Source: a plasmid | Length of the DNA stretch: 64,000 bases | Sequence record: NZ_CP095281.1 | Direction: 5' to 3' (one strand) | Part shown: piece after piece, positions 31,801-35,636 of the stretch | Layout of the letters: each line of letters opens with the position of its first letter | Numbering within the stretch: the first letter of the stretch is position 1 | Program-made: the position numbers

Positions 31801-34800
31801 GCCATGATAAACACCTCGATATAGCTTTACATGTGTCGATAATGGTATTATCGTTGCATCGCGTTTCAATGCAAGGGTAATTAAGGAGGAACTGTGAGAA
31901 AGGATGATTCCAACTTCGCGCGCTTCTGGCAGGCATATGGTGAGAAGACCTCATTCTTGCGTGAGAAGAAGTGGCGGTGGGTTGTAGGTGTGCTGGGTCT
32001 TTTACTGCTTCTGTGGAGTGCTTACTCAGGTGTGAAACACCATGAGCGGTTGGATGAAGCCAAAGCAGCCGGTGATCAATCAAGTCAAGAGTTCAAGTAT
32101 TTGAAAGACTGAAACTTCTGTTGCAGGCAAATTGCCTGCAACGATATGCATTCTACCTGTGTGCATATCGTTGCAGTCTCTCCCCGCATTTGAACTGCGA
32201 CCCGCCCGGCATACGGGCGGCATCTACCGCGGGACTATCTACGTTTTCCTTTAGCCGGCCTAGTGCCGGCCTTTTTATTTCGATTGTTTCCGATGGTTGA
32301 TATGAAGTTCAGGTCGCAGGCCTGCTCTCAACCACTGTTCTCCGAACTGCGTCATGACTACTAATTCTTGATGCCTGCAAGTGAGCCGGTCGGCAATTTG
32401 CTGCATGAGACTTACCTACCGTGGACGCAGCCTGTCTATAGCCATGTCCCCAGGCGCAGCTGCTGGGTTGCATCGATGCGCGGCAGCGCCTTGGCCATGC
32501 GGCCCAGTCCGGCGGCCTGGCCCTCAAGATGGGGGATCGAGGGGAGGAGCAAGCTGCAGTGCTGCAACCGCTCGCGGCGCTCTGCCGGCCGGCGATGTTG
32601 CCGAGCTGGGGCACCGGTGGGGGGCTACTGGGCCATGTCCGCGGGCGCGGCGCCGAGGCCATCACCTAGTGGGGGGCCCTCAGGAGGGGGTGATCGAGGG
32701 CAGGGTGCACTGCAGTGCTGCAACAGTTCGGTGCACCTCACTGGCCAGCAGCCCCTGCCTCTCCCGAGTGGTGCGGGATCTGATTCAGTGGGGACATGCT
32801 GCTGGGCCATGGCCATGTCCCCGGGCTGGACGGCAGACGGGGGTCATCACCTGGTGGGCAACCCGGTCCGGCGGCCTGGCTCCCAGGGGAGGGTGATCGC
32901 GGGCAGGAGCGTGCTGCAGTGCTGCAACCGCTCGAGGCACCCCGCTGGCCGGCAGCCCCAGCCTCTCCCAGGTGGTGCGAGATCAGATCCGGTGGGCGTG
33001 CTGCTGGACCATGGCCAAGTCCCCGGGCGTGGCGGTGCGCCGGGATCATCACCTGGTAGGCGAACCGGTCAGGCGATCTTGCCTCAGGAGGGGTGATCGC
33101 TGACAGGAGCGCGCTGCAGTGCTGCAATCGCTCGTGGCACCCCGCTGGCCAGCAGCCCCAGCCTCTCCCAGGTGGTGCGAGATCAGATCCGGTGGGCGTG
33201 CAGCTGAACCATGGCCAAGTCCCCGGGCGGGACGGCAGAAAGGGCCATCACCTGGCGGGCTACCCGGTCCGGCGGCCTGGCTCCCAGGGGCGGGTGATCG
33301 CAAACAGGAACGCGCAGCAGTGCTGCAACCGTTTGGAGCACCCCGCTGGCCAGCTGCACCAGCCTCTCCCGAGTGGTGCGGGATCTGATTCAGTGGGGAC
33401 ATGCTGCTGGGCCATGGCCATGTCCCCGGGCTTGACGGCAGACGGGGGTCATCACTTGGTGGGCAACCCGGTCCGGCGGCCTGGCTCCCAGGGGAGGGTG
33501 ATCGCGGGCAGGAGCGCGCTGCAGTGCTGCAACTGCTCGAGGCACCCCGCTGGCCGGCAGCCCCAGCCTCTCCCAGGTGGTGCGAGATCAGATCCGGTGG
33601 GCGTGCTGCTGGACCATGGCCAAGTCCCCGGGCGGGACGGCAGACAGAGGCCATCACCTGGTGGGCGGCGCGCTCGGCTGCCAGGTTCCCATCGCGGGCA
33701 GGAGATGGCTGCAGTGCTGCAATCGCTCGAGGTGCTGTGTCGGCCGGTGACGTTGCCGGGCTCGGGTCACCGGTGGGGCGCTGCTGGGCGATGGCCAAGT
33801 CCCCGGGCGGGACGGCAGGCAGGGGCCATCACCTGGTGGGCAACCCGGTCCGGTGGCCTGGCCCTTAGGAGAGGGTGATCGAGGGGAGGAGCAAGCAGCA
33901 GTGCTGCAACTGTTGGGGCACCCCGCTGGCCAGCAGCCCCAGCCTCTCCTTGGTGGTGCGAGATCTGATCCGGTTGGCGTGCTGCTGGACCATGGCCAAG
34001 TCCCCGGGCGTGGCGGTGCGCCGGGATCATCACCTGGTAGGCGAACCGGTCAGGCGGTCTGGCCTCAGGAGGGGTGATCGCGGACAGGAACGCGCTGCAG
34101 TGCTGCAACCGCTCGTGGCACCCCGCTGGCCAGCAGCCCCAGCCTTTCCCTAGTGGTGCGAGATCAGATCCGGTGGGCGTGCAACTGGGCCATGGCGATG
34201 GCCATGTCACCGGGCGGGACGGCAGACAGAGGCCATCACCTGGTGGGCGGCGCGCTCGGCTGCCAGGTTCCCATCGCGGGCAGGAGCTGGCTGCAGTGCT
34301 GCAATCGCTCGAGGTGCTGTGTCGGCCGGTGACGTTGCCGAGCTCGGGTCACCGGTGGGGCGCTGCTGGGCGATGACCAAGTCCCCGGGCGGGACGGCAG
34401 GCAGGGGCCATCACCTGGTGGGCAACCCGGTCCGGTGGCCTGGCCATTAGGAGAGGGTGATCGAGGGGAGGAGCAAGCAGCAGTGCTGCAACTGTTGGGG
34501 CACCCCGCTGGCCAGCAGCTCCAGCCTCTCCCTGGTGGTGCGAGATCTGATCCGGTAGGCGTGCTGCTGGACCATGGCTAAGTCCCCGGGCGTGGCGGTG
34601 CGCCGGGATCATCACCTGGTAGGCGAACCGGTCAGGCGGTCTGGCCTCAAGAGGGGTGATCGCGGACAGGAACGCGCTGCAGTGCTGCAACCGCTCGTGG
34701 CACCCCGCTGGCCAGCTGCCCCAGCCTTTCCCTAGTGGTGCGAGATCAGATCCGGTGGGCGTGCAGCTGGGCCATGGCGATGGCCATGTCCCCGGGCGGG

Positions 34801-35636
34801 ACGGCAGACAGAGGCCATCACCAAGTGGGCGGCGCGCTCGGCGGCCAGGTTCCCATCGCGGGCAGGAGCTCGCTGCAGTGCTGCAACCGCTCGAGGTACC
34901 CCGCTTGCCGGCAGCCCAAGCCTCTCCCTGGTGGTGAGAGATCAGATCCGGTGGGCTTGCTGCTGGACCATGGCCAAGTCCCCGGGCGGGACGGCAGACA
35001 GAGCCCATCACCTGGTGGGCGGCGCGCTCGGCGGCCTGGTTCCCAGGTGCGCGCTGCGGTGCTGCAACCGCTCGAGGTACCCCGCTTGCCGGCAGCCCCA
35101 GCCTCTCCCTGGTGGTGCGAGATCAGATCCGGTGGGCGTGCTGCTGGACCATGGCCAGGTGCCCGAGCGGGACGGCAGACAGGGCCATCACCGGGTGGGC
35201 GACCCGGTCCGGCGGCTTGGCCCTGAGGGGCGGGTGATCGTGGGCAGGAGTACGTTGCAGTGCTGCAACCGATCAAGGCGCTCTGTCGGCCGGCGACAAG
35301 ACGGTATGAAAGGCGGCTGAGAGAAGTTGCGGCTGCAGAACTGCAACCGCTCGAGGAACAAAGCTGTTAGCTAGTCTGTGAGCCAATCGACAGCTGTATT
35401 GTGTGTTACCGCTTCAGTAGTTGTTTCAATTATGACACTGGAATATCCCCCCACGGTGGGATTTACCCCCATATTAGCCGCATGTTCTGCTTCATCGAAA
35501 GTGGGGAATACGGCACATGATTCACGACTGTAGCCTCTTTCGAAAATAATCTTGCAGCGCCCATGGTATCCGTCAGGCACTGTTGAAATAACATCTGGCG
35601 TAATTTCATCTAGGGAAGGTGCGAACAAGTCCCTGA

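Follow-up and report, generated by a model that had tools for sequence, protein, structure and literature searches.

ParB, Noc, and KorB-type proteins recognize palindromes of 14–16 bp. Plasmid RK2 carries about a dozen OB sites; the sopC centromere of F is a series of tandem 43-bp units that each contain an inverted repeat bound by SopB; and multi-parS chromosomes and N15-type prophage-plasmids hold several palindromic sites of 14–16 bp, some of them within genes, including parB. Here we describe a 64,000-nt stretch of plasmid record NZ_CP095281.1 (the window, meaning that whole stretch), whose backbone belongs to the pAsa8 family of Aeromonas conjugative plasmids (MOBF relaxase, F-type transfer genes). 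It holds two tandem arrays of a GC-rich unit, arrays A and B, together with a dispersed palindrome, TTGCAG-NN-CTGCAA, of which the most conserved block of the array unit, GCAGTGCTGCAAC, is a one-mismatch version. From sequence evidence and by analogy with described systems, we consider it probable that the arrays are amplified binding sites of the plasmid's own ParB (49092–50213), serving as KorB-like loading sites.

In its working, the system is most like KorB–OB of RK2. Both encode a ParB-family protein next to ParA and scatter a short palindrome over the whole backbone, near to and far from promoters, and in relatives of the present plasmid a KorA/TrfB-like gene also lies next to parA. From its sites, the CTP clamp KorB can reach promoters as far away as 1.5 kb (PMC11790492), a distance that matches about half of the 2.7-kb mean gap between sites found here. 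Unlike RK2, the present system has about 30 single and about 35 array sites, a site sequence unrelated to OB, tandem arrays (which RK2 lacks), and an arginine motif that reads GEGRWR. No TrfB/KorA-like partner was found in the window or is annotated in pAsa8; TrfB-related genes occur only in pO23AP4-type relatives.

Each array, in turn, resembles sopC: It is tandem, its copy number lies above the minimal need, and each unit holds one copy of a palindromic site, the unit's most conserved block, for a protein predicted to belong to the type Ia ParB family. Unlike the sopC repeats, the units are 181–245 bp long (156–204 bp in array B), four to five times longer, with 68% GC and only 73–80% identity among heterogeneous copies. 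The family has three arrays, 14–31 kb from parAB, whereas sopC is one array directly after sopB, and the array sites are imperfect versions of a dispersed perfect site. Multi-parS chromosomes and N15-type elements share with the window identical short palindromes spread over the replicon, some intragenic; their sites, however, are few and either origin-clustered or irregular, whereas the present sites are regular over the whole backbone and accompanied by arrays. With no KorA partner in the pAsa8 family, and with long, heterogeneous, GC-rich units distributed over three distant arrays, the system departs from the defining features of both KorB–OB and sopC. Neither the site sequence nor the arrays are described in the searchable literature, the repeats are unmentioned in either pAsa8 paper, and pRAS4 is an unrelated VirB-type plasmid.

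Anatomy of the arrays

The initial annotation placed about 16 tandem units in array B, spanning some 3 kb and twice the length of array A, and this outline holds. Array B (32370–35350, plus strand) comprises 15 in-phase units of 156–204 bp, preceded by a degenerate partial unit that starts at ~32370, ahead of the first anchor, and followed by a variant site. The anchor GTGCTGCAA occurs in 15 in-phase copies from 32559 to 35260, with successive spacings of 156, 204, 200, 201, 204, 190, 187, 199, 196, 187, 199, 196, 181, and 201 bp; the corresponding 14-mers start at 32554, 32710, 32914, 33114, 33315, 33519, 33709, 33896, 34095, 34291, 34478, 34677, 34873, 35054, and 35255. Tandem Repeats Finder (TRF) calls the array at 32675–35279 with periods of 181, 200, and 376. 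The terminal site reported as CTGCAG-AA-CTGCAA at 35333 is present as the variant CTGCAGAACTGCAA.

Array A (17140–18520, plus strand; eight sites) starts 78 bp past the mobF stop and is called by TRF at 17154–18388 with periods of 187, 202, and 374. It has perfect palindromes at both ends (17153 and 18502) and CTGCAG variants at 17356, 17558, 17745, 17932, 18119, and 18307. The array B anchor recurs seven times in it on the same strand, in agreement with the annotated sharing of unit family and orientation. A uniform ~190-bp unit, in contrast, does not describe these arrays, which are mosaics of ~200-bp and 187-bp forms that differ in their first half. Array B also contains a 582-bp super-unit, in which units B7-B8-B9 are repeated as B10-B11-B12 with 96–98% identity. 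Two arrays bracket the tra2 block within the window, as annotated, but the full set in complete relatives is larger: pAsa8 and pAsa8-b carry three arrays, all in one orientation, plus a 1.5-unit mini-array. Array C lies between hypothetical genes and the H-NS gene, array A after mobF, and array B between the tra blocks. The small genes beside arrays A, B, and C are mutually unrelated, and an array-associated gene module was accordingly rejected.

The arrays have 62–70% GC, against ~43–45% in the surrounding tra genes; array B, at 68–70% GC compared with 44% for the backbone, is noncoding. Their GC-rich sequence has many local inverted repeats, and gene callers predict open reading frames (ORFs) of 100–260 aa across them, as might be expected if each unit encoded a structured RNA, a small peptide, or a promoter. 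We regard such a role as extremely unlikely. Unit lengths are variable and not multiples of three, so that reading frames break, and no long ORF runs through the arrays; a protein search with a 261-aa array ORF recovered nothing beyond 31 ORFs that themselves derive from arrays, lack Pfam domains, and form no real family. A scan of the whole window at Rfam gathering thresholds gave no match, folding of six unit segments in either strand yielded z-scores between −1.4 and +1.9, and the RNAalifold structure for 80 distinct units, at −19 kcal/mol, showed G-C/G-U changes only and no compensatory pairs. Array B contains no sigma-70-like promoter, and its one terminator-like match (33313–33327, minus strand) is within the number obtained on shuffling. 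Chi sites were also considered and dismissed: The exact sequence GCTGGTGG is absent from the arrays, and matches at seven of eight positions, the only ones present, are unremarkable at 68% GC.

The array unit and the dispersed palindrome

With units cut on an independent marker, AGTCCCCGGGC, as a guard against ascertainment bias, GCAGTGCTGCAAC is the top 13-mer of the unit, with a conservation of 0.993 against a unit mean of ~0.83; the next conserved blocks are ATCACCTGGTGGG (0.953) and GCTGCTGGGCCAT (0.93). Within the array sites, the right half-site and the core are invariant and the outer left positions are relaxed, the left half reading CTGCAG in 55, CAGCAG in 11, and TTGCAG in three of 80 distinct units. 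The unit blocks CACCTGGTG, ATGGCCAAGTCCCC, and CCGGTGGG were tried as dispersed motifs in their own right and set aside, none having a palindrome-like dispersal over the backbone.

The 14-bp pattern YTGCAG-NN-CTGCAR has 34 matches in the window, where 0.10 would be expected. The canonical perfect form, TTGCAG-NN-CTGCAA, occurs 17 times, as 14 solitary sites and three array-edge units. Only two one-mismatch sites lie outside the arrays, so that solitary sites are essentially all-or-none. Complete pAsa8 has 29 perfect sites, every one in the backbone and none in the transposon/integron region at 5–33 kb, together with 26 array-type copies (CTGCAG-TG-CTGCAA). This palindrome also ranks first in frequency among the 6+6 palindromes of four further plasmids, whose backbones otherwise differ: pO23AP4 (seven perfect sites in 50 kb), pWP8-S18-ESBL-04_1 (seven in 50 kb), pAsa_2939 (four), and a 77.6-kb Vibrio fluvialis plasmid (16). 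In these relatives the consensus is the perfect 16-mer ATTGCAGTACTGCAAT.

For the analysis of site spacing in pAsa8, each array was counted as a single locus, and a duplicated 6.5-kb segment was represented once. The 25 gaps average 2.7 kb with a coefficient of variation (CV) of 0.45, against 0.94 for random placement (0 of 20,000 simulations as low), and the largest gap is 5.4 kb (P = 0.0009). Corresponding CVs are 0.47 (P = 0.0015) for the window and 0.53 (P = 0.006) for the V. fluvialis plasmid. Sites are more evenly spaced than chance, and a dispersal like that of KorB–OB is found in all three replicons (17, 29, and 16 evenly spaced sites in the window, pAsa8, and the V. fluvialis plasmid, respectively). 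A metagenome contig (L045) shares 80.3% identity with the window across 18.2 kb, and in it six of six sites match at 14 of 14 positions, while their 120-bp flanks are 65–91% identical; as this comparison indicates, the palindrome is under purifying selection. The free central dinucleotide varies along pAsa8 (sites 4028–110391), reading CG, CC, or CA at 4–45 kb and TG, TT, AA, TC, or GA at 72–110 kb, a bias that may come from strand compositional skew or from a hidden polarity of the site.

The V. fluvialis relative has the same gene order without arrays. At the place of array A it carries a single perfect site 2 bp past the mobF stop, and at the place of array B a single perfect site between a small plus-strand gene and traC. 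On one reading of this correspondence, arrays A and B grew at ancestral single-site positions.

These observations also bear on whether the arrays do anything at all. They could be neutral or selfish satellite-like expansions of a GC-rich foreign segment that happened to hold a near-site, arrived at three intergenic places, and grows and shrinks through slippage or unequal crossing-over, tolerated by the plasmid and with no function beyond that of single sites, and several features fit: Copy number differs in every relative, units are only 73–80% identical with a decaying left half-site, units have lost alternative internal segments relative to the 236- to 245-bp units of a diverged lineage (L053, described below), and some palindrome-bearing relatives have no arrays. 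We nevertheless consider a neutral origin and persistence rather unlikely. The arrays occupy the same three positions in all family members, including a lineage only 88% identical; the site block is conserved at 0.99 and two other blocks at 0.95–0.97 in units that have diverged by 20–27%, which argues for constraint; and the exact coincidence of arrays A and B with probable ancestral single-site positions is not predicted by random insertion.

The solitary perfect sites of the window lie both between and within genes. The site at 9037–9050 (TTGCAGCACTGCAA) is intergenic, in an AT-rich flank ~94 bp upstream of the ORF at 9131–9721, and that at 46663–46676 is likewise intergenic, ~28 bp upstream of the ORF at 46276–46635, at the head of the traL operon. 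Others fall within the coupling-protein (T4CP) gene (13348–13361), traG (20543–20556), traF (25470–25483), trbC (28698–28711), the first gene of the tra2 block (31533–31546; ORF 31374–31814, minus strand), traB (44032–44045), and traK (45318–45331). The traB site is identical at 14 of 14 positions in the 80%-identical contig L045, where the traK site and the site at the head of the traL operon are also kept. The site at 57899–57912 has a likely counterpart at the same relative position in pAsa8 (site 4028, 19 bp upstream of a hypothetical gene), although the central dinucleotide differs and the megablast alignment stops at window position 57801. A further site (60394–60407) lies near the edge of a TnAs1-type transposon, and the remaining three are associated with the par locus.

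ParB as the candidate binder

The proposed binder is encoded by parB (49092–50213, plus strand), which starts 15 bp downstream of parA (48352–49077, plus strand), so that the two form one operon. ParA is a Walker-type ATPase with CbiA, AAA_31, VirC1, and ParA family matches. ParB combines a ParB_N domain (Pfam, E = 3e-13) with a helix–turn–helix (HTH), and its relatives include chromosomal ParB, Noc, and KorB: In phmmer searches, Caulobacter crescentus ParB (6t1f) aligns over residues 43–204, including the HTH, with matches also to Noc, KorB, and Spo0J; the match to KorB (PDB 8qa8) has low sequence identity (E = 1e-8). The HTH region E-T-x-I-S-R-Y-R-K-L-L and the L-T-N-I-N-T motif that follows are kept among the ParBs of the five plasmid types.

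ParB was also the route by which the four other palindrome-bearing plasmids were found. Their ParBs are 32–43% identical to that of the window, every plasmid examined with a homologue in this range carries the palindrome, and it is absent from loci and plasmids whose ParB is 29% identical or less.

Three solitary sites lie within or downstream of the par operon. One is in the 3′ end of parA (49046–49059), 33 bp before parB; a second is in the 3′ end of parB (50104–50117), at a place that is also occupied in the V. fluvialis plasmid (L035, 10961), so that two lineages share it; and both are kept in L045. The third (53635–53648) follows the par operon and precedes repA by 20 bp. Placement after the par operon or within the 3′ end of parB is classical for centromeres, and the site at 53635–53648 is a candidate primary centromere; its place is also occupied in pO23AP4, pAsa_2939, and pWP8-S18-ESBL-04_1. 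A perfect palindrome is found just upstream of the start of an IncFII-type repA in four lineages (window 53635–53648; L006 22664; L005 36118; L036 26198), at 20–52 bp where measured (window and pO23AP4), and its binder might therefore also influence repA expression.

In a protein comparison, only ParA, ParB, a 166-aa ORF, a tyrosine recombinase, TraB, TraK, and (by annotation) H-NS are common to all five plasmid types; the only DNA-binding candidates among these are ParB, the adjacent ORF, the recombinase, and H-NS. Domain content, HTH conservation, site positions, and co-occurrence together lead us to assign the palindrome to ParB with moderate confidence. Two other uses of the site were rejected. 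A role as methyltransferase target fits poorly, since the N6/N4 methylase of the leading region is annotated in pAsa8, pO23AP4, and pWP8 but not in the palindrome-bearing pAsa_2939 and V. fluvialis plasmids, and the enrichment of sites is opposite to the prediction of restriction avoidance. As a tyrosine recombinase site it has an unfit architecture, with 6-bp arms, a 2-bp spacer, and ~30 copies.

Another plasmid protein could be the binder, in what would be a purely regulatory system, and three candidates come into question. ORF166 (50246–50746, plus strand; 166 aa) directly follows parB and co-occurs with the palindrome in all five plasmid types, which makes it an alternative or accessory candidate, but it matches no family and has no recognizable DNA-binding domain. 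A 481-aa ParB-like protein is a second candidate: In pAsa8 and pAsa8-b, a perfect site lies 1 bp past the stop codon of its gene. Its only match in pO23AP4 and pAsa_2939, however, is the main ParB, a separate counterpart not having been found in either, and both plasmids carry the palindrome. A KorA/TrfB-like repressor is the third, since TrfB-related genes adjoin parA in three relatives; the annotations of pAsa8 and of the V. fluvialis plasmid contain no such gene, nor does one belong to the shared protein set. Of the window's 14 solitary sites, six lie between genes or close to a gene start, as operators would, yet most sites are intragenic and fit position-independent loading better than classical operators. 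On balance, we judge a binder other than ParB to be unlikely.

The 481-aa gene is itself a second ParB-like gene of the leading region, where it lies beside ardA, psiA, and a small DNA methylase gene. It occurs in pAsa8 at 57446–58891 and 64014–65459 (L004), within a 6.5-kb segment that is present twice, and in pAsa8-b at 51369–52814 (L007); the palindrome begins 1 bp past its stop.

On the preferred reading, arrays A, B, and C are tandem amplifications of a site bound by a dimeric protein that the plasmid encodes, most probably ParB. In the pAsa8 lineage, three site positions would have gained a GC-rich segment of ~190–240 bp with an imperfect site, CTGCAG-TG-CTGCAAC, and unequal exchange or slippage would then have amplified it to 8–19 copies per array. 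By analogy with ParB and KorB, ParB dimers would load at each palindrome, close as CTP-dependent clamps, and slide over a limited range. With a single site every ~2.7 kb, the whole backbone could stay within clamp reach, and arrays with a site per ~190 bp could give very high local ParB occupancy. Any adaptive value of the arrays might lie in serving as main partition complexes, as silencing hubs or boundaries between transfer operons, or as both. The initial annotation had suggested that the arrays, if ParB-binding, would be large nucleation platforms; the conserved near-palindrome block, selection on the palindrome, its sharing across the ParB clade, and the par-adjacent site support this suggestion.

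Several findings weigh against ParB as the binder or against the role proposed for the arrays. The link between ParB and the site is one of co-occurrence and family analogy, and ORF166, encoded in the same operon, is inseparable from ParB by co-occurrence. The arrays are 14–31 kb from parAB, unlike classical plasmid centromeres. In place of the canonical GERRxR, the arginine patch of ParB (residues ~98–104) has GEGRWR, and that of the V. fluvialis homologue GECRWI, so that CTP-dependent clamping is not assured; the next box is ENIGK/ENIGR, and the QPR and GExR residues are kept with one arginine lost. Nucleotide-binding behavior of this ParB clade may thus differ from that of the ParBs studied to date. 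Array sites carry C at position 1, where T is otherwise invariant, and 11 of 80 units have CAGCAG, so array sites may bind weakly. ParB binding leaves unexplained the 68% GC of the units and their second block, CATCACCTGGTGGGC, conserved at 0.95–0.97. Finally, related plasmids with the palindrome manage without arrays, which are therefore not required for the basic system.

A bolder version, which we offer tentatively and think rather unlikely, takes the sites of pAsa8-family plasmids and their Aeromonas and Vibrio relatives to support a hitherto undescribed ParB coat over the whole plasmid, with ~2.7-kb spacing allowing sliding clamps to cover all backbone genes. The pAsa8 lineage would have added three super-loader arrays (8–19 sites in a ~200-bp GC-rich unit) with CATCACCTGGTGGGC as a second motif for another factor. 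The arrays might then act as ParB reservoirs or as insulators that separate transfer operons. They might also be weapons of incompatibility, titrating ParB from co-resident plasmids whose site specificity is shared, for example those of the pAsa_2939/pO23AP4 type, which occur in the same host species.

Array evolution, plasmid context, and significance

Anchor counts across relatives are 8, 10, 17, 8, and 10 for array A; 15, 13, 13, and 11 for array B; and 10, 19, and 10 for array C. Units of the same array have a mean identity of 0.80 both within and between plasmids, and units of different arrays 0.735 within and 0.731 between plasmids. Unit identity follows the array and not the plasmid, so the arrays predate the split of these plasmids and have not been homogenized with each other; concerted evolution of arrays A and B, which had been put forward for testing, is not supported, with an inter-array identity of ~73% and a same-array identity of 80% regardless of plasmid. 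Together with the duplication of B7–B9 as B10–B12, these identities point to local change within arrays. A few units of array B have their nearest match in array C, suggestive of occasional exchange between the two.

In a lineage 88% identical (L053; GCA_019972695.1, contig BPOS01000057.1, 9914–10813), array A units are 236–245 bp long and hold the segments specific to both the ~200-bp and the 187-bp forms. The two unit forms of the window therefore look like alternative deletion derivatives, which suggests a longer ancestral unit. The unit was found on pAsa8-family plasmids only, and the comparison with chromosomal copies that the initial annotation envisaged does not apply. Distant blastn with three units against 72,556 plasmids matched pAsa8 and pAsa8-b only, and a two-anchor scan of 185,579 species genomes returned pAsa8-like contigs of Aeromonas rivuli plus chance and coding repeats; no donor gene or chromosomal copy of the unit emerged from either scan.

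It had also been proposed that the two arrays could drive deletion, inversion, or amplification of the block at 17–35 kb. As direct repeats 15 kb apart, arrays A and B might indeed be mainly recombination substrates, deleting or amplifying the tra2 block to give nonconjugative or altered isoforms: They share 98 50-mers and exact runs of up to 95 bp, long enough that RecA-dependent deletion of the 15-kb block is possible, and rearrangement within arrays clearly occurs. As the main role of the arrays, however, this is very unlikely. The canonical neighbors (mobF and traG for array A, tra2 and traC for array B) are unchanged in all complete plasmids and in all contigs that reach the flanks, with copy number alone varying and no deletion or inversion junction; inversion isoforms, of which none was found, are not expected because A and B are direct repeats. 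The arrays of one plasmid are not homogenized, and the dispersed palindrome would be left unexplained.

Among the 72,556 plasmids, the window backbone matches only pAsa8 (Aeromonas salmonicida, 110.6 kb) and pAsa8-b (A. caviae). Conjugation of pAsa8 has been demonstrated (PMC10673383). Window 10052–18085 aligns to pAsa8 69237–77255 at 95.8% identity, 19767–34248 to 80118–94590 at 97.3%, and 38932–53821 to 95687–110577 at 99.2%. The gene order runs from T4CP and the MobF relaxase through array A, a small ORF, and traG-H-F-N-trbC-U-W-lepB (minus strand) to array B, traC-V-dsbC-B-K-E-L (minus strand), parA, parB, and the IncFII-type repA.

The elements reported on either side of array B are where they had been placed. 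Ahead of it lies a hairpin cluster (32120–32279, plus strand) made up of two overlapping perfect inverted repeats (32120–32142, with 11-nt arms and a 1-nt loop; 32136–32176, with 15-nt arms and an 11-nt loop) and a terminator-like stem with a T-run (32254–32279). The inverted repeats are directly upstream of both array B and the tra2 operon and are built from the palindrome half-sites GTTGCAG and CTGCAAC at a noncanonical spacing. Beyond it, IS5 starts at ~35610, 264 bp past the last site, and is followed by the armA module, whose armA gene is 100% identical to annotated armA. Relative to pAsa8, the inserted segment (35615–38931) comprises IS5 (transposase 35646–36662), armA (37145–37987, minus strand), and a Y2-transposase fragment; its point of insertion is the small gene that separates array B from traC, and it is no part of the array system.

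Three further observations concern the replicons themselves. The traG gene of the window contains a 99-bp tandem repeat (19770–20364; 6.0 copies, 96% matches) that is in frame and encodes 33 aa; TraG lengths of 1264 aa (window), 1495 aa (pAsa8), and ~1296 aa (pAsa8-b) show that the copy number of this coding repeat varies among relatives. Window 1–8100 holds chromosomal-type Aeromonas genes—csgG, two curli-subunit-like genes, and a truncated uvrA (542 of ~940 aa, 88.7% identical to an A. caviae chromosome)—followed by ISKpn3 (IS1595 family), an IS21 fragment, and the pAsa8-like backbone; pAsa8 has its leading region and array C at this place. The source replicon is therefore either integrated into a chromosome or in possession of a captured chromosomal piece. 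The pAsa8-b record (CP039630.1) has an apparent untrimmed terminal overlap, with traU, array B, traC, and parA at both ends, and many frameshifted genes; its 95.6-kb length and its gene count are accordingly overestimates.

As sequence markers, the palindrome and the arrays identify a family of Aeromonas and Vibrio conjugative plasmids that now carries armA and class 1 integron resistance regions; the arrays also account for the fragmentation of such plasmids in short-read assemblies. If ParB binds the palindrome, this would be a natural plasmid with ~30 regular loading sites and three amplified arrays, beyond what is known from RK2 KorB and F sopC, and a ready system in which to study clamp travel distance, the tuning of site spacing, and the effects of site density on partition, tra silencing, and incompatibility. 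Because distinct plasmid families in one host genus share the site, partition-based incompatibility between them is predicted, which would bear on the coexistence of resistance plasmids.

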